The translations under genes were made by a program, and so were the position numbers. A stretch of 64,000 nucleotides of DNA from Raja brachyura (lineage: Eukaryota). Below, one piece after another: positions 1,835-45,617 of this stretch. Within the stretch, counting starts at the first letter, position 1. Each line of letters begins with the position of its first letter. The stretch covers positions 28,644,001-28,708,000 of the forward strand of contig OY740785.1 of the NCBI GenBank assembly GCA_963514005.1, written 5' to 3'. The notes beneath the pieces are model-generated. The model did no database searches and was not told the origin of the DNA. It worked only from the letters and a program-made list of their open reading frames with translations.

Positions 1835-3324
1835 CTAACAGAAAGGTGATGCTGTTGGATCAAAAGTCTTGAACATTTCTTTCAGTGGTTTTTTACCCTT
1901 TTTACTGTTTAAGTCAACTTCCTCTACCTGGTTGGAAGGTGCAGAATGTTTAGTTTGTCTTGGGTCACTGTACTGTGGTCTGATGAGGCCGGCTAAAGCC
2001 TGGATTGGTAGGTTATGCACAGCAGGAGCAGACGTTGTAGCTGCTTGGACAACAGTCTTTGACTGTGCTTTGTACACGTCTGATTTCTCTGGACCAAGAT
2101 CACTCACCTCTTCCGCACTTGTACTTTCCTGCGCCACTGAAGACTTGTAGATTGTTGATGAATCACACTGTGTGTTTTCTGATTTGATGGGATCTTTTGG
2201 TACACTAAGCTTTTTTAGTTGCTCCCCTTCCTTAGAGGAATCGGCTTGTGTGGTTAAAACCGAAGTCACTACACTTTGAGAAGTCTGGGTCCGTGGATCA
2301 TAGAGACTAATGCCACTGAGCAGCGTGCTCGGGGATCCAATTCCCATGCCACCTGCAGATAGTTTGGGAGCGTATGGAGGAAGCGCGGTCGGATCTGCCT
2401 TAACGGTAACTTGCGTCGAACCACCACTTGCTTTTGATAAGCGAGGATCCACTCGTGTGACATGGGACTCCCTTGTAGCAGTATCCGTGCTGTTTTTCTG
2501 CAACCTCGGATCCGACGACTTCTGCAATCGTGGGTCCAAAGGTCTTTCAGAAGAAGCCCTTGGGTCTACGCTCTTTTCTGCACTTTTTATCGCGCTGCTC
2601 TCCTTCAAGCGCACAGACAGCCGTGGGTCAGCGATCTGACGGGAGTCATTTGTAACACTCAGAACTCTGTTCAGGCGCTGATTGGCTATTAGTGGAGGGA
2701 GAGGCAAATTTATTGAAGACACCGGATCTGGTTTTGGCAGAGGCAAGGGAAGGAGGTCTTCCGGTGTCCATACAACAAGTTTTGCAAAGTTGGGTTTAGA
2801 GAGAGTTATGTCCATCTTGATGTGGCTAAACTGCTTTAACTGACTGCGTGGATCCCGCAAGGTTGCACCAGGTACGGACTCCAAAGGTATTATGGCTGCT
2901 TTCTCCCTCAGTTCTCGTTCAGTATCTTCATCATCATCCAGTCCTTGCTGCTTATTAGATATAGGATGAGTATCAAGTTTAGGGCTCTCACTGACAGAGG
3001 GAGCTGCAGGGGGATTCTCATGTGCTTTCATCTTTCTGGGATCTCTTGCTAATCTTGGATCAGCAGAGACGGCTTCTGAAGATTTCTTGACTTCTCCAGC
3101 TGTACCCTGACGCAGGTCAGATCTTGTTCGAAGATCAGAATGCTTATTTTCAGTGGACTTCTCTTTCACAAGTCTGGGGTCCGTGTATGTGTAAGATGCT
3201 TGTTCTGTTGTAGGAAGTTGCTGGTTCTTCATGGTCTCACTTTGTTTCTTGAGTGTTTTCAGTATCGATTTTACACTGCTACCAACGTCCTCCTCGTCAC
3301 TTGAATACCAATTAACAGTCTCAT
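1835..3324 (-). CDS. ZC3H6: ZC3H6 last coding exon (DETVNWYSSD ... DPR repeats ... FKTFDPTASPFC*)
   Basis: tttcag acceptor at 3326-3325; contains ORF 1835..3232. C-terminus FKTFDPTASPFC and QFSHIKMDITL..PNFAK match ZC3H6. Confidence 0.96.
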
Positions 3325-5932
3325 CTGAAATGATTTAGGAAAAGAAACATACGTATTTTCATTAACATGCCAAGTAAAATACAAGCATGTAGCAACTGGA
3401 ATAATTCTGCCACTTCTAGACATATCGTACATTAGAGAATGCTGCTCTAGATATGGATCATGAAACGGACAACAGTTGAACGTTCAGTTGTTGAACGGAC
3501 AGAAATGCTCGCCATGTCAATGGAATCAAAATGAATGAAAGGTTCCAGTACAGCAAGTTCAGATGGCCTTAAACCAATTGCAGCTGAACAAGATTTCATA
3601 ACACAAATACAACTTATTGCTGAAGCTATTTTATTAGACACCACAAAGCTGATTGTGACTGGGAGCGTCACCCAAACTGTTTGAACTTCTTACACTTTTT
3701 TTCTGCCTGTAGAGCCAACAGATTCTTATACGTAGATATGATGTGCTGATATCAGACAGTGTTACCGATCACTGAAGTTACCATTAGGATTGCCCCTGGT
3801 TTTCAAAAAGATCCTAAACTGAGTACACACACTATTATCCAAATCATTCTACACAAGGTCAAATTCATCCTTAAAAACAAAAGGTCCAAAATAATTAAAA
3901 TATAAAGAGTTCGTTAACATTCTATTTATATCGTATTCATTAAATGCACAAGATCTGGCCATAAAATGTGTATGAAGTTCAAACAGTTTGGGTGACGCTC
4001 CCAGTCACAATCAGCTTTGTGGTGTCTAATAAAATAGCTTCAGCAATAATTACATTATTTGGAGCACTGTATATAGTTATGATACAAAATCATACTTCCA
4101 GTTGATAGTTTTTATTTAGGTCTTTAAATTTTGGATTCAATTTTGCAACTTAATTGGTGGTTCTAAGCAGCAGCCACTGGGGGCATTATAAAACAGGTTT
4201 TGAAGTTGCTTGCAAACCTACGCACCATCTTGCTTAAAATCGAAATGACACCGAAACAGACCGTCAACTAGGTTTTGCATCTAATTCAACCGACAAAGTT
4301 TTCTATTCCGCTCTCCTTTGTATACATGAAGCATGCGACTTGCCTCAACTACTTCCTATGATAGTGGCTTCTACATTTCAACTGTTTCATTTAAAATCAG
4401 TCACTTTTTGAAGTTGTTTTGCCTCTTGGTCAGGTAGAAAACTAACAGATGGAAATGTATTCACCTTCCCTCATGTCTCTACACATTTCTGTCATACTGG
4501 ATCATAACCATACACAGTGCACCAAATAATGTAGTGAAGGTTCTTTGCATTTTATGGCCTTTATGTTCAAATATGTAGCATTTTCCTTCAAAATGCAATG
4601 TTTCAGTTTTGTATTGGCATGTTGTAATTAGCAAGGCAGATGACAAGCAAGAGATAACTGGCAGTATTAATAATGTGCCCTATGGAATATTGTTTCACAA
4701 ATCAAGACTCCATGGGGTGGGATAAGATATTAGAAGGTAAAAACGATTTACTGAAAGACTGAACTTCATAGAATACATAGATTATTTTTTAGGTTGGCAA
4801 ACTTTTAGTCCTGGGTAGGTATAGAGCATAACAATATTGAAAAGAACCAAGTATCTTCATGACACAAAGATGGAAAGTAGGAGGCCGATATATTAAGCAA
4901 GTTGTAAAAAGGCAGATTAAGTATATGGGGGTAAACATTAAATGGCCAGATATTATTAATCTATGTGCAGAGTGATTTAGGTGTGTCGGTACAGGAAACA
5001 GTTGAAATTCAAGTGGAGAAGGAATCAAATCAATTAATATACCGACACTCATTGCAAGATCCTGTTTTTACATTTATACAAATAAAGACTAGCTCTTAAA
5101 CAGCATCTTCCATTGCCACAGGATGTTCTGACATGCCTTAGTCAGCAATGTACCTGGAATTGTGATATGGTTGCAATGCAGGAAACTGTTAAGCCTGCAA
5201 GTAGTTAGTTGATTATTGTCAGGACAAATGAAATAGCTGTCTTTGTCTTGTGCAATAGCATGTTGGGATCTTGGTATCACGGAGCATCCAGAAATCAACA
5301 CTTTTGACAGTGCAAAGCATTTACTATACTGCGCTCATCTTTTCACAGATTATCTAAATCTTTACCCAGATTATTGCGCAAAGGTTTCCAGCCTCAAAAT
5401 GACGACTTCAAAATTCAGGAGCGAGAATACTACCCATTGTTTGACAGCTAATAACAGAGGGAACTCTTCTTTAATTGTACAGTTCTTTATGATCTCCTTA
5501 ACCAAGGTAGACAACAGTGATACAGATAAATTCACAGACACATGAGATTGATTTACGAGAAGAGACTGAGGACGTACCTATATTCTCTACCATTCAGCAA
5601 AATATGAAGCTCAATGAATCAAATGACAGTCGGCTAAATGCTAAGAGGTAATTTCCCCTGGTTTGAGATTAAAACAAGGGCTATAAAACTTGCAAGAAAA
5701 GTTGGCTACTATTAGGAATTACACTATATCAGACAAATGAGACATTTCATCAGAGCTGTGAATCTGTGAACTGTGATAGAGAGTTGGAGAGATATAGAGG
5801 GTTGGAGAGTTCCATTTTGTTCAAGGCGGAGGTACAAGTTAATAAAACAAATTCCTTGGATGAAATGGTTATTTAATTCACATGATGTAAATATTGCTTG
5901 CAAGGCCAACATTTACTGTCCACCGTATGGAA

Positions 5933-6590
5933 CAGGGCTCGAAATTAGTGGTTGCCCGGGTGCCAATGACCACCCAAAGTGCCACCGGGCAACCTAAACG
6001 CCGACTCATTTTGCCCGTCTTGGCACGCAAATACCGATTTATACCGATAGACACAAAAAACTGGAGTAACTCAGCGGGTCAGGCAGCATCTCTGGCGAAT
6101 AGGAACGTGAAGTTTCGTGTGGGCTGTGTGGGGCAAAGATACTAGGTGCGTGGTGATGAAGGGTCGGAGCGAATGACGGGCCCCGAACAGCGGCAACGGC
6201 TCCACCGTCACCTCCTCCTCCCGCACCCCGCCTGGCAGAAGGAGGCCTCCCTCTCCCTCCGAGAGGGGTTGTTTTGAAAACGCCGTTGGCGGATTTGCAA
6301 GCAGCGGCCGCTATCGCCCTGATAACGGCCGCTGCTTGCCAATCTGCCAACGGCACTATCAAAACAACCCCTCTCGCACGCCGAGGCTAGGAGGAGCGAG
6401 AGGGAGAAGGAGGCCTCCTTCCGCCATCTGAAGCAGCTGCACCAAAGGTCCAATACTTCATCCGAGCACATTATCGCACGCGTCATGCAAACCGTGTTAA
6501 ATAACCACCTAAACTGTCATTTGGCAACCTAAAAAGCTGTCAAGGTTGCCCGGTTGGCAACAGGGGAAAAAAAGATAAGTGAGAGCCCTG
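5933..6590. mobile_element. Non-autonomous hAT-like DNA transposon with 5-bp TSD (hAT5-like)
   Basis: TIR CAGGGCTC...GAGCCCTG; TGGAA duplicated at 5928-5932 and 6591-6595; subterminal GGTTGCCCGG/GGCAAC motifs. Confidence 0.75.
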
Positions 6591-6771
6591 TGGAATGGAG
6601 TCTCTTGCTGGGTAATTTCATGGAGTAGGAGTCAATAGCTCTTCGATCGGTCTAGACACACATAGGCTGGACAGGGTAGCAGTGAATTTTCTTCCCTTAT
6701 GTACATTATTAAATCAGAATTAAGACATGTGACCATAAAGCTTTAAATTAACAGCATATTTTAAGACTAAC

Positions 6772-7014
6772 CTTCATCTCTGCTCTGTTGCAAATGTGAC
6801 TGTTTATTGTCAGACCCTCCCTCTTCCTGCTGTTTCTGCTTAATTCTGAGAAACAGGGCTTTTTGTTTGGCTGGGAGGAAGTCTGGAACATTAACAGTAG
6901 GCTTACGACCTGTTGAACTGCTGGCATCTGATTCAGTGTCACTTTCTCTTGAATCATCTGTGGCCAAGAAAGACTGATGATCTCTCTGCTCAGATGCTGA
7001 ATTTGATACTCCAT
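6772..7014 (-). CDS. ZC3H6: ZC3H6 exon 11 (VPDFLPAKQKALFLRIKQKQQEE)
   Basis: cag acceptor, G|gttagt donor; 243 nt, phase 1 to 1. Confidence 0.93.
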
Positions 7015-7738
7015 CTGCATATTTTAAAAACAAAACAAAGCTTTCTTCATAAGTCAGTAATACATTACCCGTAGATCACTGACGAGCTGCATTTATATTT
7101 TTCGATAAACAAACATCTTCTCCAGTTAAATTGTGTTGCACCTTTAAGTAGCTCAGATTTATCTCTACTCTACATCTTCCTGTCCCAGTTAACCAGCGAG
7201 GAATCTTTAACCATACCTTCATATGATGCAACATTAAAACGTTAAATTGCTTGCCTACATAATGGGTCGCAAGGCAGTGAAGGTATTTAATTCAGTACCG
7301 AGACAATTACAAGCAGGATTTTTTATTTTATGGTGGTGCAGCACACCACCACAATGCCAAATTAGAAAGCAATTAAATCAGTATTATCTTCCCACTGAAA
7401 TGGCTGTATTAAACTGCAAAGATTACAAAGTACAAAATCTAGGCTACTTAACACATCTAAGTTGTTCATGCTCCACCTGAACTTGCTCTTACTGTTAGAC
7501 CTCTCAGCACAACCTTTCATTCCATTTCTCCTTGATGACAGCATTTTCAAACAAAAAATAATTAGATTCTCATTTGAAACTCTTGCTTGAGCAGCTATTC
7601 CAGTGGTAAATTCTGTTCCAACTGTAGCAGAGTCGCTGCATCTAGTCAAAGGTAAATTTTGCTCTCCAAATTCGATCTGGAAAAAAAAACATTTCATACA
7701 ATTTTCCAATCTTCAATTAAGAAATGATCATGCCGTAC

Positions 7739-8355
7739 CTCCCAGATGATTTTCTGGCTCCAAATTATGCACGGATTGCTGCGAATAGTAAGAGCTGTAG
7801 AAGTCCACCGGGTTTTGGATCTGCTGGTATGGGATGTCTTGTTGGTATGCCATATCTTGTTGGTATGCCATGTCTTGCTGGTATGCAACATCTTGTTGCA
7901 TCGCTTGAGGTCCATCAGGTGGAAACTGTGGGCGAGTTTGATTTTGTGATGGCGGTGGTACCTGATGCTCCATGGGCATGTTCATCATAGGTCCTTGAAA
8001 TCCCATCTGACCTGGAGCTCCATTTGGTCTTTGATTTATCAGCGGACCTGGAAATCCTGGTGGGGGAGGTGGACCTAGATGTCCTGGGGGAACTGGTGCG
8101 TCAGCTTGGTCCTGTAAACCTGGCTGTCCAGGTAAGCTTGGTGGCATGATGGGCCCAGACATGCCTTGTGGAACTGACATATTATGTGGAGCCACAGGGC
8201 CTGGAGGACCAAAACCACCTGGAGAACCTGGAGGCCCGTTGGATCCTGGAGGCATCATGTTTTGATCAGGACCAGATCCAAACATCTGAGGGGGAGGTGG
8301 TTGGTCTTCGTCAAATGGAGGATGTTGGGGTGATGTGCTGTTATAAAACTGGGGC
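7739..8355 (-). CDS. ZC3H6: ZC3H6 exon 10 (Pro/Gly-rich; QNPVDFYSSYY)
   Basis: Within ORF 7728..8405; tag acceptor, G|gtacgg donor; 617 nt. Confidence 0.93.
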
Positions 8356-8829
8356 CTAGGAGAAAATAATTGAACAATTGAAACGCTCTCAGAAGCAAAT
8401 AACAATTCAAATTACTGCCAAATATCATTATTGCCAACCATTTATAGCAACGCAGGCTAATTGCTTTTACTATTTTTTATTCCTGAATATGGATGCCAAT
8501 TAAATCATCCTCAATATACTCCCAAATAACAAAGTGATACACATTATTACAGGGTTCCCTGCTACTTTGTTCCGAAGTTTGGCTAGACCTCAATTCCAGT
8601 TGCATCAAATCTTGGCAATAAACTGGTTAAATATGAATAGCTTTGACGGGTCAACTTGGTTGGCATGGATAAGTTGGGCCAAAGGACCTGTTTTCGTGTG
8701 TATGATCAACTACTAGAACTAGGATACTTTTAAGTAAATAAACATCTGTAAATGAAAAATATGCAGTTTTATACACATCATTATCTATCCAATGATGTAT
8801 ATAGGATGTATATTTCATGTTCATGTTAT

Positions 8830-9050
8830 AGGAGCAGAATTGGGCCATTCACCCCATCAAGTATACTCTGTCATTCAATCATGGCTGATCTATATTTCCC
8901 TCTCAACCCTATTCTGCTGACTTCTCCCCATAACCCGAAACATTTACAAATCAAGAATCTGTCAATCTCTGCCTTAAAAACCTCCATCGACTTGGACTCC
9001 ACAAGCAATGAATTCCAGGTTCACCACCCGCGGTCTAAAGAAAGTCCTTT
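8830..9050 (-). mobile_element. CR1-like LINE 3' end, decayed
   Basis: ggccattc...attcaatcatggctgatc 3' UTR signature shared with other CR1 copies in the window. Confidence 0.6.
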
Positions 9051-9197
9051 AAATTGAATACAGCGTTGTTCCAACAATTTGAGTACCATTTGCTGAGCAC
9101 ATTTTAGTATATTCTAAATTCAGCTTGCATTGAATGATGCAACTCATGTATCCAGTCACTGACTTTTAATTCAACCGTAGACATAAAATCTACGTAC

Positions 9198-9541
9198 CGT
9201 AGTCCCATCTTGTGAGCAAAGACATCTGTTGGTTGTACAACAATATCAAAGATGGAAGGAATCTTCCTCCCTGGGGAAGAAGGGCACTGTGGCTGGTCGT
9301 TTGGTGGACCCATTGGCATTTGACCAGAAAAGTTTGGGGGTTGCGGAGGAGTTGGTAATAACCCAATCCCAGGTGGCGGTTTTGGGAGAGGACTTATGCC
9401 TTGTCTCCTCAGATCTTCTATTTCGAGTTTATCATCATCTTCATGATACACATAGTCATAATCATATTCATAATTATCAAAGTCATTGGTATTGCCGTAG
9501 TCTTTGTTGTCATCATAATTTACATTTTCATTATTCAGCAC
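9198..9541 (-). CDS. ZC3H6: ZC3H6 exon 9 (PLPKPPPGIGLLPTPP ... KIPSIFDIVVQPT)
   Basis: Within ORF 9104..9592; cag acceptor, CG|gtacgt donor; 344 nt. Confidence 0.95.
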
Positions 9542-10259: not shown

Positions 10260-10369
10260 CTTGTCTAACAATTCCCTTGTTTCGTCAGTGAGTGGAGCAT
10301 GTGAGAACTTGCAATTATCACCTTGATAGCACATTGCTCCTGTATGATAGAATTTACACGGGTATTCAC
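10260..10369 (-). CDS. ZC3H6: ZC3H6 exon 8 (CCCH finger 3, [26 protein letters not shown])
   Basis: AC acceptor, AAG|gtttgt donor; 110 nt. Confidence 0.95.
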
Positions 10370-11387
10370 GTACATTAAAATCGTTAAGGAACATTAAAAA
10401 AAATAAGAACAAGGACATCCTAGTTTTTGATCTTGAAGAATACATTTACTTATTATTTAAAACCTAACTAAGCAATTCATGTTATGGAACTAGTTTATCC
10501 AAATGAATTTTTTATGTATTTAATGTATTCAAAAAGTCTGTAAACAACTTTAGATGTGGAGATCATTCTGAATGTAATTACATTTGCTGAGAAGCAGGAT
10601 TTCAGAGCCAAAGAACTTTAGATTCCCAAAATTGATTGGAGAATGACAAACAGTGCACAAATAAAATGTGAAGTACATGTTGTACGATGAATGATAAACT
10701 GCTTCATTCAGTTTCTGAGGAAGGACTTTCCAAATCTGAGGAAGGACATTATTGCCATAGAGGGAGTGCAGAGAAGGTTCACCAGACTGGGTTGTCAGGA
10801 CTGTCTTATGAACAAAGACTGCATAGACTCGGTTTATACTCTCTAGAATTTATGAGATTGAGAGGGGATCTTATAGAAACTTACAAAATTCTTAAGGGGT
10901 TGGACAGGCTAGATGCAGGAAGATTGTTCCCGATGTTGGGGAGGTCCAGGACAAGGGGTCACAGCTTAAGGATAAGGGGGAAATCCTTTAGGACCGAGAT
11001 GAGAAGGACTTTTTTCACACAGAGAGTGGTGGGTCTCTGGAACTCTCTGCCACAGAGGGTAGTTGAGGTCAGTTCATTGGCTATATTTAAGAGGGAGTTA
11101 GATGTGGCCCTTGTGGCTAAGGGGATCAGAGGGTATGGAGAGAAGGCAGGTACGGGATACTGAGTTGGATGATCAGCCATGATCATATTGAATGGCGGTG
11201 CAGGCTCGAAGGGCTGAATGGCCTACTCCTGCACCTAATTTCTATGTTTCTATGTTTCAACAGACAATCAGCTATATTTATTTTATAGGGTTATTTAAAG
11301 CAGATGTTTAAATTAAGAGTAGGAACTTAAAAACAAACAAAAATAATGTTTACATGTTATTCAAACAGTAAAGAGATAAAAGGATAT
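10370..11387 (-). other. U12-type (minor spliceosome) AT-AC intron of ZC3H6
   Basis: 5' end ATATCCTT at 11387; branch site TCCTTAAC at 10390-10383; terminal AC at 10371-10370; splicing restores frame MHG-EYPC. Confidence 0.95.
10728..11258 (+). mobile_element. CR1-like LINE 3' fragment inside the U12 intron
   Basis: LGLYSLEFMRLRGDLIETYKIL...RTRGHSLRI...FFTQRVVGLWNSLP; (TTTCTATG)n tail. Confidence 0.9.
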
Positions 11388-11499
11388 CATGCATGAAAAT
11401 GCAGTTGTCTCCTTTGGTACAAAATCCGTTAAGGTAGAATTTGCAGATATCCTTCTTCTTTTGTATGACGACGTCATGACTGTATCTGCATTGGTCCCC
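11388..11499 (-). CDS. ZC3H6: ZC3H6 exon 7 (end of finger 1 and finger 2, GDQCRYSH...ICKFYLNGFCTKGDNCIFMH)
   Basis: cag acceptor; ends at U12-type donor ATATCCTT; 112 nt. Confidence 0.95.
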
Positions 11500-12194
11500 C
11501 TGTTTAACAAAATCAAATAAAAACAAACATCATGGTTGAAAATCATTGCATCAAGTTTTCAATCTTTTTGCTGTCAGAAAAATGACACACTTGAAGTGTG
11601 CACAAAGTGCAAATTTGAGACAAATCCGTTCCAGCCGGATAAAATCATTATTGTGTATCTTGTGCATCTTCTAAGGCAGGCCATCCCAATTGTGTGTATT
11701 GTCAACATCTACAGGCCATGGTGCTATTAGTGAAAGATGCTCCAAATGACGCGACTGCTGCCAAGATATAGACTAACTAACTCATCCAACATGAAGTTAT
11801 AGTTCAAAAAATGCTAAGGACATTATTGCCCATGCTATATGATATAAAATTCCTCACTTTAGTTTTGGAATTATAAAGTTGAGAGTTTTGAATTTTCAGC
11901 TACATTTAGTGGAGATTGCAATTTATGCTATCAACTAAACTAACTAACCAGTTCAGCATATTCAGCAAGCCATGTGTTGTTATTGAATATTTTAAATCAT
12001 GCTCTCCATTAATAACGATGTGGGAATTCTGTCACGAACAAAGAGTTGGGAAAACCCCCAAAATGTAATGACACAAAATGTAATAACCACAGTAACATTT
12101 ACATTGTGAAGAGAAATAAGCTCCTCTTTACTTTTAATTTATTTTAACCATAGCCATCTCCAATTAAAAACATCATAAACAATGAGAAACATAC

Positions 12195-12323
12195 CCTTGT
12201 ACAGCGACCCTCCAGAAAATACTTGCATATGCCTCCTTTCCTATTCTTTTCAATTGGCCCATGGTATGGATAATCTTGATTTTTCTTCTTTTTTCGGGCA
12301 AAATTTGCACCTCCATAACCATC
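12195..12323 (-). CDS. ZC3H6: ZC3H6 exon 6 (start of CCCH finger 1, ICKYFLEGRCTR)
   Basis: cag acceptor, AGG|gtatgt donor; 129 nt. Confidence 0.95.
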
Positions 12324-14398: not shown

Positions 14399-14532
14399 CT
14401 CCTCACAGCCATCCATCATACCATCAGATCCTCTTCCAGGTCCCCAGGTTTTGCGTTTCTGTTGTGGTTTTGGTTGACCTCGCATAGCACGGCCACGGCC
14501 AATTCCTCGACCTCTACCCTTTTGCATGACAC
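14399..14532 (-). CDS. ZC3H6: ZC3H6 exon 5 (GRGRGIGRGR, RG-rich)
   Basis: tag|GT GTC ATG CAA AAG GGT AGA GGT CGA ... GAG GAG|gtaaag; 134 nt, phase 1 to 0. Confidence 0.9.
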
Positions 14533-15326
14533 CTAGTAAAAAATCCACAAATTATTACATTTCTCAGTTAAAAAACTCTCAAAGCACAAAAGCATCTGGC
14601 AGACAAAGTCCCGCATTAAATCTTTTCATTTAGTCAAACTAAATAAGTTTTCAGACTTGAGTGTCCCTTTTTATGGGGACGTCAGGGCAGATTCCTATTT
14701 GCGTAACGGAAGAAATGAGAAATAACAAGCCTGACAGAGTATTTCAGTTCAGTAATCAAATCAAAAGACATCATTTATGGAGTTATTTATTTCATATTTT
14801 TTATTTGGGTTAAAATTCATCCAAGAAAAAGTCTCTTCTGTCTGCTGCGTCATTAAAAAGTTTAAAAAAAAATTAGCCTAATCAGCAGTGGGCATGCTAA
14901 TGGACTTCAGATGATGCTGCTTGTCCCACTGAGTTACTCCAGCATTTTGTGTCTACCTTCAGATGATACAATCGGGATTTTGAAGGAGAAAAAACAAATT
15001 CAATGGAAGTAACTACAGAGATGTCTGTAGAAAACTAGGAATTGCAGATGCAGGTTTTAAAAAACGAGTTTGAGTAACTCAGCAGGCCAGGAAATAGCTC
15101 TGGAAAACATGGATAGGGGACGTTTTGTGTCAGGACCCTTCCTCAGACTGTCTTGTTTCATGCCTGATTGAATCATTTGCAAATTCAATTAAGAATTGTT
15201 TCTACTCTAGACAGTTAAGAAAATCCAGAGGTTTAGTGAAGTTTCAAATAAGTCATGAAGAATTGTGGAGCTTGCGTATCAACAGTTGATTTACTTGGAG
15301 CAAATTATATAAGCACTAGAGACTTA

Positions 15327-15628
15327 GGGCGGCATGGTGGCGCAGCGGTAGAGTTGCTGCCTTACAGCGCCGGAGACCCGGGTTCGATCCAGACTACAGG
15401 CGCTGTCAGTATGGAGTTTGTACGTTCTCCCAGTGACCTGCGTGGGTTTTCTCCAAGATCTTCGGTTTCGTTCCACACTCCAAAGACGTACAGGTTTGTA
15501 GGTTAATTGGCTTGGTATAAATGTAAATTACCCCCAGTGTGTGCAGGATAAGTGTGGGGCCCCAGGTCGGCGCGGACCCGGTGGGCCGAAAAGCCTGTTT
15601 CTGCGCTGTATCACTAAACTAAATTAAA
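15327..15628 (+). mobile_element. tRNA-derived SINE (HE1/V-SINE-like)
   Basis: A-box TGGCGCAGCGG, B-box GGTTCGATCC (15381-15390), core cgtgggttttctcc, CR1-like 3' end and (CTAAA)n tail. Confidence 0.85.
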
Positions 15629-15800
15629 CACTAAGCAGTGCTAAAATGTGTTTGAGGGGGAAAATGACCTTTGTAGCTGTCATAGAATACAAGTTCTTGA
15701 ATACAGCCCATTCACAAATGGCCACCTAAATTTAAATGTAACACATACACACCATTAAACTTCCGGAATACAAAGTTTTAAAGAAACAAACACAACTCAC

Positions 15801-16059
15801 CCATCGGGATATCCTTCATACCAGGTTTCCGCATCTGTCCCATTGGTGGCCCTTTTGGAGACATAACATTTGAGGCTTCCTTTGCCTGCTTGTATTGTTT
15901 CAGTTCATTCGCAAAGTCATCACACTCTTCCTCTTCATATGTATCATATTTCTCCTCACTATAGTCGCTATAATCAGCATAGTCACGGTTATCAGCATTG
16001 TTGTTATTGTACGGTTTCTGTGCAGGGGATTTCATGTAATTTCCAGGTCCTTGAGCATG
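15801..16059 (-). CDS. ZC3H6: ZC3H6 exon 4 (DDFANELKQYKQAKE)
   Basis: Overlaps ORF 15778..16035; tag acceptor, G|gtgagt donor; 259 nt; DFANELKQY family motif. Confidence 0.95.
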
Positions 16060-16199
16060 CTAAAACCAAAATGAGGCTAAGTCAAGTCCAAACACAGTTT
16101 CATATCAATTTCAGATTAACATTTTAAACATTATCAATGCATATTATAAAGCAGAATTTCAAACCAGGATTGTTTAACATCAGGAGCTTTCTCAAATGT

Positions 16200-16515
16200 T
16201 TAGTTTAGTTTAGAGATACAGCACGGAAAATGCCCTTTAGCCCACCAAGTCAATGCTGGCCACTGATCACCCGTTCACACCAGTTTTACATTATCCCATT
16301 TTCTCATCCACTCCTTTCACATGAGGGGCAATGTACAGAGGCCAATTAACCTAAAGGCCCACACATATTGTGGGATGTCAGAGGAAACCAGAGCACCTGG
16401 AGGAAACCCATACGATCACAGGGATAACGTGCAAACTCCAAAGAGACAGCGCCCAAGGTCAGGACCGATCCCAGGTCTCTCATGCTATGAGGCAGCAGCT
16501 CCACCAGCTGCGCTA
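16200..16515 (-). mobile_element. tRNA-derived SINE, same family, decayed
   Basis: (TTTAG)n tail plus agatacagc; reverse complement of core and head. Confidence 0.75.
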
Positions 16516-16583
16516 TTGAGCTGCTCCCTAAATGCTTTCCACATTTTATTATTCAAGCCACAGTAGATAAACTCATCCATATT

Positions 16584-16720
16584 ATTGTATCGTTGTATAC
16601 ATGACCATTTAATTCTATATTTGCCCAACTTCACTTTTAAATGTGGCAGAATTGTATCGTTGTATACATGACCATTTAATTCTATATTTGCCCAACTTCA
16701 CTTTTAAATGTGGCAGAATT
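16584..16720. repeat. Perfect 67-bp tandem duplication
   Basis: attgtatcgttgtatacatg...atgtggcaga at 16584-16650 and again at 16651-16717. Confidence 0.9.
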
Positions 16721-17233
16721 CAAAAAAATGGAATACACAAAAAACAATATAGTTTTCTGAATATATTGCTGACCAATTTATTAAATCTATTTAGTTGGGA
16801 GTTATGTACTGCACAACAACAAATACACCCAATTCTATGACTAAAAGAAAGTGGGTAAAAAAGTTATTTTACATAGGAGAGGGCTGCAACATGCTGGATT
16901 AACTCAGCAGCACAGGCAACATCTCTGGTTAGAAGGAATGGGTGACTTTTTGGGTGGAGACCCTTCAGTGTTTTACATTGGGTTGGATCCTTATCGTTAT
17001 AGGTATCTCTGCATGGGCATACCGTCCCGGTCAGCAAATTAAAAAGATCCACATTCATGCTTTAGTTTCAAAGCATGTTTTATCTACTACACAGAAATTA
17101 TTTACAGCAGCATAGTTGAAGTAACTATGTTGTAAAAAATTAAGTATTGCATTAAAAAAAAATATATATATATATACTAACTGACCAGAAAAAGGGCGCT
17201 TTGAAAATATCGTAGCTATTTTTGGGTACCTAC

Positions 17234-17350
17234 CGCAGGGAATGGAGCATCATATTCCCTGTAGGGTGCAGGAGCTTTCTTGTATGATCTTTCCGTATCA
17301 ATATCAGAATCATAGCTGTAGTCTGAATCACCACTGGAAGGAGAATGCCG
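17234..17350 (-). CDS. ZC3H6: ZC3H6 exon 3 ([16 protein letters not shown]...REYDAPFPA)
   Basis: tag acceptor and gtaggt donor; 117 nt in frame; similar to ZC3H6 HNSPSSDDSSDYSLDSD. Confidence 0.93.
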
Positions 17351-18495: not shown

Positions 18496-18682
18496 CTTGT
18501 GCTTCTCTTTCTTCCTCTTTTTTGTCTTTTTCTTTTCTCTTTCTTTCTCACGTTTTCTCTTCTTCTTGGATCTTCTATGGGACGATTTGTCCTCTTTCTC
18601 ATTTTCTTTTGTCTCCTTCTTTACTTCATTTCCTTCAGCTCCATCATCATCGATTTCCCCATCTTCAAGTTCCCCATCCTCC
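18496..18682 (-). CDS. ZC3H6: ZC3H6 exon 2 (EDGELEDGEIDD acidic motif plus Lys/Arg-rich tract)
   Basis: ttctacag|G GAG GAT GGG GAA CTT GAA GAT ... GAG AAG CAC AAG|gtacag; 187 nt, phase 2 to 0. Confidence 0.95.
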
Positions 18683-23300: not shown

Positions 23301-24046
23301 GGTGTGGTTGAAAAGTGGCAATGGATACTTGTACCACAGAAGCGCCAGCCATGATCATCTCTAAGAGTTAAATCTCCAACTCTTGGTAAATCAATAAAAT
23401 TACCATTGTTAAACCATTCACCATCTTCAAGTGTCACCGTTCATCAAAAACGCAATGAGAAAAATACTGTGGCTATCGGTTGAATGGGTATCTAATGCTG
23501 AGCAGTTCATCTCCTGACACCCTAAAGCCTCAGCTATCTACAAGGTACAAATAAAAAACACAAATAGCAAACTAGTTTCTAAACCGTGTAAGAAGGGAAA
23601 TATTACAAACCAGGACAGGATAAATATTTGAGAATAGGGAAATAAAGTTTTCATGACACAAAAAAATTGCCTGAAAATAGTGGTGTAAAGTGAACGCAGA
23701 GCTCAAAGAAATTAGGTAGACATAAAATGGTGGAGTAACTCAGCGGGACAGGCAGCATTTCTGGAGAGAAGGAATGGGTGATGTTTTGGGTCAAGACCCT
23801 TCTTCAGACTGATGTCAGGGGAGTGGGTGGGACAGAAATCTTTTCTGGACCCCTTTCTGATCAAAGAAATCAGTATTAGTTAAAGAAATGTACATAGTTA
23901 GAATATTGGTCTTTATTGCATGAGGATTTGAGTACAAAAGTAGACTGTGTTGATATAGTTATATTTAGCCTTAGTGAGACCACATCTGAAATATTGTGCA
24001 TGTCTAGCCAGCTACATGATTCACGCAATATAGCCAATGTAGTGAA

Positions 24047-26207
24047 GAGAGGGAGGGAGAGAGGGGGTNNNNNNNNNNNNNNNNNNNNNNNNNNNNNNNN
24101 NNNNNNNNNNNNNNNNNNNNNNNNNNNNNNNNNNNNNNNNNNNNNNNNNNNNNNNNNNNNNNNNNNNNNNNNNNNNNNNNNNNNNNNNNNNNNNNNGAGT
24201 GAGAGGGATGAGGGAGAGAGTGAGGGGGAGGAAGAGAGTGAGAGGGGGGGGAGGGGACGGGGGAGAGGGGACGGGGGAGAGGGGACGGGGGAGAGGGGAC
24301 GGGGGAGAGGGGACGGGGGAGAGGGGACGGGGGAGAGGGGACGGNNNNNNNNNNNNNNNNNNNNNNNNNNNNNNNNNNNNNNNNNNNNNNNNNNNNNNNN
24401 NNNNNNNNNNNNNNNNNNNNNNNNNNNNNNNNNNNNNNNNNNNNNNNNNNNNNNNNNNNNNNNNNNNNNNNNNNNNNNNNNNNNNGAGAGGGGAAGGGAG
24501 AGAGGGGAAGGGGAAGGGAGAGAGGGGAAGGGGAAGGGAGAGAGGGGAAGGGGAAGGGAGAGAGGGGAAGGGGAAGGGAGAGAGGGGAAGGGGAAGGGAG
24601 AGAGGGGAAGGGGAAGGGAGAGAGGGGAAGGGGAAGGGAGAGAGGGGAAGGGGAAGGGAGAGAGGGGAAGGGGAAGGGAGAGAGGGGAAGGGGAAGGGAG
24701 AGAGGGGAAGGGGAAGGGAGAGAGGGGAAGGGGAAGGGAGAGAGGGGAAGGGAGAGAGGGGAAGGGGAAGGGAGAGAGGGGAAGGGGAAGGGAGAGAGGG
24801 GAAGGGGAAGGGAGAGAGGGGAAGGGGAAGGGAGAGAGGGGAAGGGGAAGGGAGAGAGGGGAAGGGGAAGGGAGAGAGGGGAAGGGGAAGGGAGAGAGGG
24901 GAAGGGGAAGGGAGAGAGGGGAAGGGGAAGGGAGAGAGGGGAAGGGGAAGGGAGAGAGGGGAAGGGGAAGGGAGAGAGGGGAAGGGGAAGGGAGAGAGGG
25001 GAAGGGGAAGGGAGAGAGGGGAAGGGGAAGGGAGAGAGGGGAAGGGGAAGGGAGAGAGGGGAAGGGGAAGGGAGAGAGGGGAAGGGGAAGGGAGAGAGGG
25101 GAAGGGGAAGGGAGAGAGGGGAAGGGGAAGGGAGAGAGGGGAAGGGGAAGGGAGAGAGGGGAAGGGGAAGGGAGAGAGGGGAAGGGGAAGGGAGAGAGGG
25201 GAAGGGGAAGGGAGAGAGGGGAAGGGGAAGGGAGAGAGGGGAAGGGGAAGGGAGAGAGGGGAAGGGGAAGGGAGAGAGGGGAAGGGGAAGGGAGAGAGGG
25301 GAAGGGGAAGGGAGAGAGGGGAAGGGGAAGGGAGAGAGGGGAAGGGGAAGGGAGAGAGGGGAAGGGGAAGGGAGAGAGGGGAAGGGGAAGGGAGCGAGGG
25401 GAAGGGGAAGGGAGCGAGGGGAAGGGGAAGGGAGCGAGGGGAAGGGGAAGGGAGCGAGGGGAAGGGGAAGGGAGCGAGGGGAAGGGGGAGGGAGCGAGGG
25501 GAAGGGGGAGGGAGCGAGGGGAAGGGGGAGGGAGCGAGGGGAAGGGGGAGGGAGCGAGGGGAAGGGGGAGGGAGCGAGGGGAAGGGGGAGGGAGCGAGGG
25601 GAAGGGGAGGGAGCGAGGGGAAGGGGGAGGGAGAGAGGGGAAGGGGAAGGGAGAGAGGGGAAGGGGAAGGGAGAGAGGGGAAGGGGAAGGGAGAGAGGGG
25701 AAGGGGAAGGGAGAGAGGGGAAGGGGAAGGGAGAGAGGGGAAGGGGAAGGGAGAGAGGGGAAGGGGAAGGGAGAGAGGGGAAGGGGAAGGGAGAGAGGGG
25801 AAGGGGAAGGGAGAGAGGGGAAGGGGAAGGGAGAGAGGGGAAGGGGAAGGGAGAGAGGGGAAGGGGAAGGGAGAGAGGGGAAGGGGAAGGGAGAGAGGGG
25901 AAGGGAGAGAGGGGAAGGGGAAGGGAGAGAGGGGAAGGGGAAGGGAGAGAGGGGAAGGGGAAGGGAGAGAGGGGAAGGGGAAGGGAGAGAGGGGAAGGGG
26001 AAGGGAGAGAGGGGAAGGGGAAGGGAGAGAGGGGAAGGGGAAGGGAGAGAGGGGAAGGGGAAGGGAGAGAGGGGAAGGGGAAGGGAGAGAGGGGAAGGGA
26101 GAGAGGGGAAGGGGAAGGGAGAGAGGGGAAGGGGAAGGGAGAGAGGGGAAGGGGAAGGGAGAGAGGGGAAGGGGAAGGGAGAGAGGGGAAGGGGAAGGGA
26201 GAGAGGG
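24047..26207. repeat. Polypurine minisatellite, mainly (GGGAAGGGGAAGGGAGAGAG)n, with two N gaps
   Basis: 20-bp unit from 24486 to 26207; 14-bp GGGGACGGGGGAGA unit at 24250-24345; central GAGCGAG variant block. Confidence 0.97.
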
Positions 26208-26319
26208 TCCAAGTCAGTGTGGCACCCCGGAGCAGGAGCTGTTCACGGGTCACCCTCACGGGGGAAGAACGCTACCCTGCCGTCAATTAGCTCCCCCCCC
26301 CTCCCCACACTACCAACAC

Positions 26320-26545
26320 GCAGCGGCACGGTGGCGCAGTGGTAGAGTCACTGCCTCACAGCGCCAGAGACCCGGGTTCTGACTGTACGGAGTTTGTACC
26401 CGCTTGGGTTTTCTCCGGGGGCTCTGGTTTCCTCCCACACTCCACGTTTGCAGGTTAATTGAATATGTCCCAAGTGCGTGTAGGCTAGTGCATGGAGCAT
26501 CGCTTCAATGGGCCGAAGGGGCCGTTTCCGCGCTGTATCTCTAAA
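26320..26545 (+). mobile_element. tRNA-derived SINE with internal deletions
   Basis: gcggcacggtggcgcagtggtagag...gacccgggttc head; gggccgaagggcc...gctgtatctctaaa end. Confidence 0.8.
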
Positions 26546-34000: not shown

Positions 34001-35196
34001 GAAAACAGTTCACATTTGAAACCGCTGTCTGAATTGAGAAGTTGTCACGGAACCTCGTTTATTTTTTACAAGGGAGGGAGGTGAGAAGGGTGAGAGTTGT
34101 GCCCAAGTTAATTGACGACGCTACGGGGGTCCCAGAAGTCCACAATGTGTAGTACAAAAACAAGTAATGTATGTACTCAACACAAGTACCTGTATCAAAC
34201 TGTCAATTATCGACAGTACGGGGGAGGGGTGCAACAGCAAAATGATCTGCATATACCAAAACGGCACGCGTTATTTAACGCGAGATCGATTATTAAAAAA
34301 AAGTTATAGATTTTGTTACTCGGGTATGTTTGTTTGTTAAGAGTTTTCCTTCTGCAATAAGCAAAGGGAAAGAAGAAACGAACAATACCATATTTTTTCG
34401 GGCATGCTATAAATAGACCTGTGGCAAATTGATGTGACAAGTCTGGGAGTAAACAATTTAAAAATAATTCAAGGTTAAAAGGAGAACACTCGAATCGTTT
34501 TAGTTTTCCAAATTATTCCATGTGATAAGTGCTTGTTTTCTTTTAGAAAAGCAGTTTTTTTTTGGAGGGGGGGAGGGGAGGGGAAGGACTTCTTTTCTCT
34601 GTGCTCATGGGTATATCAGTGTGGCAACATGTCGGTCACACCATTGATTCACATAAAGGTTCACTGCCAAAATGGAGGTTCTAATCCCATGAAGACGACA
34701 TGAAACCGGATCACCCCGACTTCGAGAAGAGGCTTCGTCGACCCAGAATAGACAGAACAATTCAAATCTCGTTACTACATAATAAATCAAAAATGATCTC
34801 TCCCCACCCCCCTCCCCCTCCTCCTTATTTAAAGAAAAAACTCACTTATTTTTGAAAACTTACCACAATGAGGTGTTTTTTAAATGGACGAATGAATATT
34901 GTTTTAGATATTTTTTTAAAAGCCAAGCATGCACAACTGTTTATATATTTTTTCCAAAAAAAAGGACAGGAATAATAGCCCTACCCAGCATACATTTTTT
35001 TTTTAACTGTAAAAAGAGAAAGAGAAATACAAACTGTATAGTATTCACATCCCAGGAGCTGATTTTCCCCCGGAAACAAAAGTTAAAAATTAAAGCAGGT
35101 AGAGAGAAAAGAGAGAAGAGAAAGAGAATGGCAATGTTAAAACTTAATTTTTAAGAATAATTTCAGAATGGTTGAGATATAAGAATGTTACTCGAC

Positions 35197-35291
35197 CTTT
35201 CGTTCCCTGCAAGCTCAGACTCTGTCATATTTAGAACATCATTTTTGTCAACTGGGTTTGGGGGGTTGGAGAAAAGGCTTTCAAAAGCCAT
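35197..35291 (-). CDS. ZC3H6: ZC3H6 coding exon 1 (MAFESLFSNPPNPVDKNDVLNMTESELAGNER)
   Basis: ATG at 35291. MTESELAGNER matches the recalled human ZC3H6 start MTDSEHAGHDR. Ends AG|gtcgag in phase 2, matching exon 2. Confidence 0.88.
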
Positions 35292-35599
35292 TTCCCCCAC
35301 ACAAGCAGTACAAGACTGGAGAGGGTCTCAACAAGAGACGTTGCTGGTGTGACTGTTGATTTAAAAAAAATAAATAAATAAAACCAAATTAAAAAAAATC
35401 TCACGGCAAATTTGATGAAGAGTACAGTATTTTTTCTTTTTTACAAAAAAGAAAAAAACACAAGAGCGTTCAACCTTACGCGAGTTCTTATTTGGTTAAA
35501 ACTGTTTGCGTATTGGTTCTATAGAGTTTGATACCCCTCTTTTTCCGCCGGTTTTGTTCTTGGTGATATTGGTTGGCGAGAGCAACAACAAAAAAAGAA

Positions 35600-36200
35600 A
35601 AGGAAAATTTTCAAACGCTGTGGTTAACTCCTCACAAACATGGCGCTCGATGCTGTGTAAGCGCAGCGACGGTGACAGGGTTCTCTACCGACTTTACACG
35701 GAGGACACGAATGAGCCCCCCGCGCCCAGCCGCAACCTAACCCGCTGGGCTCCAGCTCCCGCCTCCAGCCCGCTCCCACTGGCTGTCCGCCGCCACCCTC
35801 GCCGCCTGATTGGCCGCGGCCCCCATCAATCCTCCCCCTTGACGTGCAGTTCCGGTAGCAGGTTCGGTTGACGGCGACTCTTCTGGAAAAGAAAATAGAG
35901 CCCCCGGGCGCGGACTGATATCGACCGGAGTGATTATAGGCAAAAGGTATGTGGGTGGGGTTAGTGAAGCTTAGGAGGCTTGTTAATACTTTGGTGTTTC
36001 TGCTTTCCCCCTTTTTTACACGCCATATTTTCTCGGCGACCGCCGGGGTTGTGCGTTAGGTATCAGTTTGAGTGGGGGTTAAAAATCCTGCGACGCAGAT
36101 TTGACCGAAAAACCATCCGTCGTGCTGACAAAATGGCGCCGGCAGGAAGCGGCCTGCAGGCAGATTGAAGTCGACGACTTAATTTGCAGCCTGTGCTCCG
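35600..36200. promoter_or_regulatory. CpG-rich bidirectional promoter for ZC3H6 (-) and OARD1 (+)
   Basis: Local CpG/GC enrichment between divergent genes. CCAAT box (ATTGG, ~35809), CRE-like TGACGT (~35840), YY1-like AACATGGCG (~35637) and AAATGGCG (~36131), ETS-like CAGGAAG (~36143). Confidence 0.75.
35860..35946 (+). other. Probable non-coding first exon of OARD1 (start approximate)
   Basis: Strong donor AAG|GTATGT at 35947, just on the plus side of the promoter; the OARD1 ATG exon has an acceptor at 45237 and needs an upstream exon. Confidence 0.5.
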
Positions 36201-44580: not shown

Positions 44581-45267
44581 GTTGGTATATTTCTTAATCA
44601 AAGTTTGTGGAATTTATAAAACATTAGACTTTAATAATGTGTTTGTATGAATTACTATGAATTCATTGGTGTTGCAGAGTCTGAGACCCTAAATTTCAAC
44701 TGATAGAAAATCTCTCAAAAAGTGTAGAATTGGCTCAGCACAACACTGAAATAACAGTCCAGATTTAAGCACATTTGCTTAACCCTCAGATATCATTTTG
44801 ACTTCTGACTGAAATACTCAGAGAGAAGGGTGTGATTATTTCAGTCAGAGTTGCAACTATCAGTAGACTGTGAAAAATATACATCTTCTAGATGCGCTGG
44901 GATGCATGCTCAGTGATATGACCTGGGGTCATCGGGTGTTTCGGGTCTCACAACATCAGACACCCTCGCTTAGGCGACCTAACTGGATTTTTAGGCCACG
45001 GTGGTTCATTAGGCCTTTTCGTAGCTTTGTTGGGTGTCTTTCTCACGAAAGACACAGACTGGGGTACTAAGCCAGCCTGTCCCGGGTGCCATTTTTCCAT
45101 GCCGTCAACTGTCTCTCCAGTAGTCACCAAACTATTCTTGGTTGTCACCCAGTCTATTCTTAGGTGCCACTGGGTGAGCCAGGAAATTATAATCGATAAT
45201 CGAGTTAATAAAATATTTATTTTGCTGTTTAATAAAGGAAGGACTAACGGAAAGAAAAGGACACAAC

Positions 45268-45303
45268 ATGGCTAATTCTGCAGACACTCCACTGGAGGGC
45301 AAT
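45268..45303 (+). CDS. OARD1: OARD1 coding exon 1 (MANSADTPLEGN)
   Basis: caacATGG Kozak context, AAT|gtaagt donor in phase 0 matching the next exon; upstream acceptor at 45237. Confidence 0.8.
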
Positions 45304-45617
45304 GTAAGTATGGATCCCAGTGAACAAGTGCATTTCACAATGTCTTCTGCCGTGTCTCTGCAAATGCCGGGAACTATCTCCTCTTCCGCATTCAAAATCA
45401 TTTTGAGCTAAAGAAATACTGCGTTTTGGAATTGAAATACGTGAAAACACAGCCACGAGGGAATTTCCTATTCTAAAATTGATTTATCAGGGCATTTGAA
45501 GAGAACTTTGAAGTGTTTTATTGTTAAAGTTCTCATGTTTTTGAAACTGCTTGAGATACTTTGACTATGTCCCCAATAATAACGGTCTCATAATTAGTAA
45601 AGGTTACCCAGTTAATA

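Follow-up and report, generated by a model that had tools for sequence, protein, structure and literature searches.

A ZC3H8-like leader peptide on ZC3H6 of Raja brachyura and its place in the ZC3H4/6/8 family

The gene whose first ATG lies at position 35291 on the minus strand of the window (the whole stretch of 64,000 nucleotides of Raja brachyura DNA that was analysed) is, going by its sequence, an ordinary ZC3H6 gene, with a start that is already annotated in public models of its relatives. The protein opens with a leader of 13 residues that is also found at the start of ZC3H8. We hold with considerable confidence that this is a full-length ZC3H6 read mostly from the first ATG (ATG1), that its leader is ancestral and a putative docking peptide, and that the family had the history proposed below, in which ZC3H8 would be a later partial copy of ZC3H6.

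The ZC3H6 gene in the window

The features of the gene and of its 5' region are as follows.

35624..35641 (-): upstream ORF of five codons (MFVRS-stop) at the edge of the sense read cover; its ATG sits in a CGCCATGTT site that we take to be YY1-like
35292..35660 (-): 5' leader under sense RNA reads (39 reads, one run), with no splice joint seen and an uncertain upper end
35197..35291 (-): coding exon 1, with ATG1, leader motif, linker and ATG2; 95 nt, phase 2, with an RNA splice to exon 2
35289..35291 (-): ATG1, the probable ancestral start; G at -3, G at +4
35253..35291 (-): leader motif MAFESLFSNPPNP (core FxxLFxxP), 13 residues, likely a short linear docking motif judging by the conservation counts
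35231..35242 (-): two out-of-frame ATGs (35242, 35239) with a mini-ORF, MMF-stop, that leaves 2 nt between its stop and ATG2
35226..35228 (-): ATG2, in frame; A at -3, A at +4; the start position in placental ZC3H6 records
18496..18682 (-): exon 2, with a tandem [ED][ED]GE[ILV] ARS2-type motif (as the motif is defined in PMC9402713) and a basic stretch
14399..17350 (-): exons 3-5 (17350-17234, 16059-15801, 14532-14399), with linker, DF.xELxQY block and RG-rich stretch
10260..12323 (-): exons 6-8 (12323-12195, 11499-11388, 10369-10260), with three CCCH zinc fingers, from Pfam on the Mobula protein, which is 86% identical
10370..11387 (-): AT-AC intron between finger 2 and finger 3 (ATATCCTTT ... 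TTCCTTAAC ... AC), presumably of the minor class, going by the consensus
1835..9541 (-): exons 9-12 (9541-9198, 8355-7739, 7014-6772, 3324-1835), with a proline-rich region and the DPR-repeat C-terminal part, absent from ZC3H8

The 12 exons give an open frame of 1278 aa with 86% identity to the ZC3H6 of Mobula, and the splice ends are AG/GT throughout except for the one AT-AC intron. Several public models of relatives read through that intron ('...HNIL...'), which leaves them with a garbled finger 3. From ATG 35291 exon 1 reads MAFESLFSNPPNPVDKNDVLN, and from the in-frame ATG 35228 it reads MTESELAGNER; the coding part ends at 35197 with a GT donor. The initial annotation had placed the first of these peptides ahead of a second in-frame Met, as is confirmed here. 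The splice to exon 2 (EDGELEDGEI, 18682) is present in 7 reads of one poly(A) run and in one contig of another run. The poly(A) run, of which about 6% was sampled, placed 39 reads, 27 of them at an identity of at least 99%, and two further runs that were mapped had nothing on exon 1.

The three CCCH fingers, the long C-terminal part and the ARS2-type motif of exon 2 all read as ZC3H6 traits. The length of 1278 aa and the ARS2-type motif set the protein apart from ZC3H8, which has about 300-450 aa and ends soon after finger 3. The last exon has 84% identity to that of Mobula ZC3H6 and includes the conserved PTASPFC tail, and in a search with this exon (best 120 of 383 full-length relatives) the nearest named relatives are rays and sharks.

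With regard to the surroundings of exon 1, the donor is GTCGAG (window 35181-35196, -), and a similar RSS peptide is found in a Polypterus model (P0034) that reads through it, so that this unusual donor may be conserved. Intron 1 next to the donor is covered by one contig and a few reads, and elsewhere holds a long purine-rich tandem array (window 24000-26400). The window as a whole has many scattered reverse-transcriptase fragments that we take to be LINE-like. Contigs of two runs, which we guess to be RNA, indicate a divergent transcript from the same CpG-rich promoter, at window 35876-35940 (+) and then at about 45238-45410 (+); they leave 35940 and continue with letters nearly matching 45238 onward, for which the donor would be GC. 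An ORF of 47 codons begins at about 45268 (+) in this transcript.

The leader motif and its occurrence

The human ZC3H8 and ZC3H6 starts quoted in the initial annotation agree with primate records (macaque ZC3H8 P0131 and langur ZC3H6 P0071). Ten of the first 13 residues of the window leader are identical to those of P0131, and the leader also fits the longer pattern FxxLFSxPPNP of the ZC3H8 N-terminus, which we regard as an ancestral trait common to both. Taken alone the match to ZC3H8 is weak (tblastn E 0.33 in 264 kb), but its position at the very first residue of a paralogue, together with its recurrence among most named non-placental ZC3H6 proteins, shows that it is not a chance match.

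The latter were found in the last-exon search, in which the best 120 of 383 full-length relatives were sorted by source name into 51 non-placental, 63 placental and 6 unnamed. Among these 120 the pattern FxxLFx(2-3)P is present in 38 of the 51 non-placental ZC3H6, which range from chimaera to echidna and koala. The remaining 13 are models that begin elsewhere and have no matching first exon. None of the 63 placental ZC3H6 has the pattern. The leader start, already shown by public models, is the normal ZC3H6 form outside placentals. The leader is not special to this genome: it is the ordinary annotated ZC3H6 start of non-placental jawed vertebrates. The loss in placentals is read from protein annotations rather than from placental DNA, and the in-frame upstream stretches of two placental ZC3H6 models (P0068 and P0070, both poor) have no relic of the motif.

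In the case of ZC3H8 we used a koala finger-region search among short proteins (best 120 of 173 matches), in which the records named ZC3H8 are from placentals, marsupials and echidna and the non-mammal rows are pieces of ZC3H6. Taking the named records with four marsupial 'uncharacterized' ones, and excluding unnamed and hypothetical placental rows, gives 85 ZC3H8 rows among these best 120, with the leader motif in 75 and the ARS2-type motif in none. The motif core is in none of 55 ZC3H4-type records, 33 of which have a MAVES-like start, and no internal copies of the motif were found in full-length ZC3H6 and ZC3H4.

With echidna ZC3H8 as query, HMMER run on 1.84 billion representatives (best 150 of 766 matches at E up to 1e-10) recovered family members starting MALES[LV]F..(P)P, and for 30 family members the source names were looked up. 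Related starts are found in two lamprey proteins, in Diadema (sea urchin), Holothuria (sea cucumber) and Ptychodera (acorn worm), and in the ticks Ornithodoros and Rhipicephalus. The leader motif is, as we read these proteins, older than the vertebrates.

Among the same best 150 of 766, 42 representatives start M.F..LF but do not have the usual family layout, with the ARS2-type motif in 1 of the 42 and two or more DPR repeats in none, as against 5-14 repeats in the full-length proteins checked. The 12 that are named by source are all teleosts. Internal copies of FxxLFx(2-3)P, 1-4 in each, are present in 32 of the 42, whereas 200 shuffles gave 0.45 on average and 2 at most; this loose pattern was chosen post hoc, and under a stricter pattern the count is 6 of 42, with 0.09 as the shuffled mean. 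These include a fast-evolving second teleost copy of ZC3H6 (P0307, P0312-P0315, P0326-P0328 and others), which goes by the name ZC3H8 in Arapaima and Denticeps and holds as many as four internal motif copies. The eight teleost copies tested are nested in ray-finned ZC3H6 (100/99 in a finger-only tree, Denticeps not included), and a single clade of the teleost copy and ZC3H8 is rejected (p-AU 0.002). Marsupial ZC3H8 has 2-3 copies of the motif in 7 of 8 records, in N-termini that are otherwise rewritten. Since the teleost copies fall in ray-finned ZC3H6 and not with ZC3H8, two lineages have independently kept the motif and the fingers and shed the termination-linked motifs.

A conserved IPS[IL]F.IVV.P block follows the fingers in exon 9 (window about 9250-9290, -), at the position of the first internal motif copy in some of the teleost copies, and this block may be related to the leader motif.

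That the motif was kept and multiplied independently in the teleost copy and in marsupial ZC3H8 argues for a real docking motif, and the leader is likely to be a docking peptide. It is rather unlikely that its conservation has nothing to do with docking to a stable partner and reflects, say, a degron or a constraint acting on the mRNA around the start. Such a cause would fit the place of the leader at residue 1 in most lineages, and also the PDB, where a search with the 32 aa of exon 1 gave no match up to an E of 10. ZC3H8 matches zinc-finger structures only (31 sequences), and Pfam on five family proteins found zinc-finger families only, none of them over the leader. However, echidna and marsupial ZC3H8 have the motif away from the N-terminus, and marsupials and teleosts have internal copies of it, which argues against a role at the mRNA level or one strictly tied to the N-terminus, leaving room for an internal degron.

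Use of the two in-frame starts

Translation of the window gene is likely to start mostly at ATG1, with ATG2 little used. The context of ATG1 is strong, and the residue after Met1 is Ala in all 38 of the leader-bearing non-placental ZC3H6 (best 120 of 383 relatives). Both out-of-frame ATGs that intervene, at 35242 and 35239, have A at -3. In the scanning model re-initiation after 2 nt is poor. Under this model a strong ATG1 followed by two out-of-frame ATGs would leave few ribosomes to reach ATG2.

It had been suggested that alternative initiation could toggle the ZC3H8-like peptide, and we find no support for this. With two working starts, leaky scanning would give, in a regulated ratio, a long protein that has the leader and a short one that lacks it, an arrangement that we consider improbable for this gene. 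It is true that Met2 is kept in 32 of the 38 leader-bearing non-placental ZC3H6 (best 120 of 383 relatives), with Asn or Thr before it in 30 of the 32, from which A at -3 may be read, and that 35 of the 63 placental ZC3H6 in the same set begin at this position, which can therefore serve as a start. But quite apart from the strong context of ATG1 and the intervening ATGs, whose stop lies 2 nt ahead of ATG2, Met2 is missing in Narcine and in the salamander genera Ambystoma and Pleurodeles, and neither of the lamprey proteins, nor any of the three ambulacrarian ones checked, has a second Met ahead of the ARS2-type motif. Read depth is also about even, with 16.3 for the bin over ATG1, 14.9 for the one after it and 9.35 for a bin about two-thirds filled by the exon, and no pile of read starts was reported (39 reads, one run), so that a promoter between the ATGs is not seen, on what are thin data.

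As the motif is old and the lamprey and ambulacrarian proteins have no second Met, we infer that ATG1 is the ancestral start and that placental proteins came to start from what had been an internal Met.

The origin of ZC3H8 and comparison with known systems

With finger-3 exon, echidna ZC3H8 and macaque ZC3H8 queries, the close family members found in this genome are at two loci, the window gene and a gene on contig C40 (G000:C40 about 16130350-16153500, +, loci L009-L011) that has a full C-terminal tail and best matches among ZC3H4 records, and for which no first exon could be placed. A further match on contig C16 has 38-42% identity and scores below ZC3H4. Outside the gene, four ZC3H8 queries against the window and a further 200 kb had no match with an E below 1.7, in agreement with the initial annotation, which had seen no ZC3H8 upstream and had proposed the genome search. 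The span searched reaches past an upstream gene with Sushi and EGF exons, 119-145 kb from ZC3H6 on the same strand (G000:C5 about 28798200-28823900 (-), loci L034-L036), which we take to be FBLN7, a gene expected upstream of ZC3H6 on the same strand if the human gene order is as we assume. A finger-2 exon query matched only itself and missed ZC3H4, showing that short queries are insensitive, and longer ones were used. As the genome search scores best candidates only, absence of ZC3H8 from this genome is likely rather than proven.

Trees of ZC3H4, ZC3H6 and ZC3H8, which had also been proposed, are in line with the view that the window gene keeps the state before duplication and that ZC3H8 is a later partial copy. 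The first covers 373 columns of the N-terminal region in 28 proteins, with marsupial ZC3H8 and the teleost second copies excluded. It puts the window gene with shark ZC3H6, inside ZC3H6 (95/94) and not ZC3H4, and ZC3H8 as one clade (97/95) within tetrapod (100/99) and amniote (95/97) ZC3H6; on these columns a position of ZC3H8 outside all ZC3H6 is rejected (p-AU 3e-6). The grouping of ZC3H8 with mammalian ZC3H6 has a support of only 58/85, so that an origin in stem amniotes with loss in reptiles and birds is possible. The second is a finger-only tree (118 columns, 59 proteins, one eel model dropped) with ZC3H8 within bony-vertebrate ZC3H6 (98/97) and no resolution of shark ZC3H6, on which neither an early origin of ZC3H8 (p-AU 0.085) nor a single ZC3H8 clade (p-AU 0.59) is rejected. 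The window gene is not grouped with ZC3H8 in either tree. A block before finger 1 is common to ZC3H8 and tetrapod ZC3H6 and is not found in sharks; the first residue of finger 3, Y in placental and echidna ZC3H8 as against F in tetrapod ZC3H6, speaks against the nesting.

Finger 3 of the window gene reads ...FSHAPLT, as had been stated, but its likeness to ZC3H8 does not have the meaning first given to it. The finger ends HAPL in 76 of the 85 ZC3H8 (best 120 of 173), and in ZC3H6 (best 120 of 383) it ends HAPL in 16 and HDPL in 17 of the 51 non-placental proteins and HDDL in 46 of the 63 placental ones. As HAPL and HDPL are also the non-placental ZC3H6 state, the likeness is a shared ancestral state.

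ZC3H8 is therefore likely to be a partial duplicate of ZC3H6 that arose in stem mammals, or possibly in stem amniotes. It is very improbable that ZC3H8 predates the shark split and was lost everywhere but in mammals (and perhaps teleosts), making the window gene a plain post-duplication ZC3H6, for although the finger-only alignment does not reject this and NCBI gives the name ZC3H8 to some fish proteins (Arapaima, Denticeps), the longer alignment does reject it, the teleost copies tested nest elsewhere (Denticeps not in the tree), and many independent losses would be needed.

We suggest the following history, with ZC3H8 as the partial copy. A single bilaterian gene would have carried the leader, the ARS2-type motif, three fingers and a DPR tail, and the leader would have decayed in ZC3H4. 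A partial duplication, probably in stem mammals, would have given ZC3H8 with leader and fingers but neither ARS2 motif nor tail. Echidna and koala, with other marsupials, have both ZC3H6 and ZC3H8 with the leader on both, so that the split seems to have been in two steps, with loss of the leader from ZC3H6 coming later, in placentals. The idea of modules partitioned by a partial duplication is thus right as to the partial copy but not as to the partition, which was not brought about by the duplication itself, only placental ZC3H6 having lost the leader. There ATG1 would have been lost, with fallback on an in-frame Met that was already present. The second teleost copy would have come to a similar layout on its own. 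By this reading the short FxxLFxxP peptide of the leader would dock to a partner protein.

Mouse ZC3H4, ZC3H6 and ZC3H8 have been grouped as one subfamily (PMC2478707). A further paper calls ZC3H4 and ZC3H6 paralogues and reports that knock-down of ZC3H6 has little effect (PMC8137146). That ZC3H6 has an ARS2 motif has been noted (PMC9402713), and the C-terminal region of ZC3H4 is reported to bind WDR82 (PMC10760643). ZC3H8 associates with the little elongation complex and, according to a review, binds the C-terminal domain of ICE1 (PMC5493778), which makes ICE1 the first candidate for the partner. Against ICE1 as the partner, 7SK RNA is reported to be needed for the association (PMC6057032), and the association is reported for a subfraction of the complex only (PMC7044329).

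We would go further only tentatively, to a view that we think doubtful as a whole. FxxLFxxP may be an undescribed docking motif as old as the bilaterians, by which the ancestor of ZC3H4, ZC3H6 and ZC3H8 attached to the C-terminal domain of ICE1 in the little elongation complex, with mammals and teleosts independently spinning off copies with motif and fingers and human ZC3H6 being the stripped remainder. If so, one ancestral protein tied snRNA and histone elongation to ARS2- and WDR82-linked termination, and the stripped state of human ZC3H6 helps to explain the small effect of knock-down. The sources leave unsettled by what route ZC3H8 joins the complex and what the role of human ZC3H6 is (PMC5493778, PMC6057032, PMC8137146). 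ZC3H8 is the sole placental family member with the motif, which was also retained and multiplied in two fast-evolving lineages that lost most of the rest, and this points to a 13-residue peptide that is directly testable. It should also be borne in mind that human ZC3H6, as studied, is a shortened form of the protein, and that some of the fish genes to which the name ZC3H8 has been given are probably not its orthologues.

The motif is undescribed in the literature that could be searched, while the gene and its start are already known from public models. Our search, which left most subscription papers outside, found no account of the leader motif, of an origin of ZC3H8 from ZC3H6 or of ZC3H6 start usage.

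With regard to known proteins, the window gene is most like non-placental ZC3H6 (Mobula, turtle, koala), with leader, second Met, ARS2-type motif, three CCCH fingers and C-terminal tail all in common. Sharks and rays differ from other non-placental ZC3H6 in a linker that is about 3 residues longer, here bringing in the two out-of-frame ATGs, and do not have the bony-vertebrate block before finger 1. Placental ZC3H6 is the orthologue, with the same domains from the second Met onward, but it has no leader (0/63) and its finger 3 mostly ends HDDL (46/63; best 120 of 383). Mammalian ZC3H8 (Fliz1) shares the leader motif, the DF.xELxQY block, the three fingers and the HAPL end of finger 3, but stops soon after that finger and has neither the ARS2-type motif (0/85) nor a Met at the ATG2 position. 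ZC3H4, the subunit of Restrictor with WDR82 and ARS2, has the same overall layout, often with a MAVES-like start (33/55), and in fish and amphibians its first segment is also about as long, but it is without the motif core (0/55) and is a separate gene here, on contig C40.

In subfunctionalisation after duplication, ancestral modules are distributed to different copies. ZC3H6 and ZC3H8 differ from that model in the long overlap between the copies, since the leader is still on both in monotremes and marsupials.
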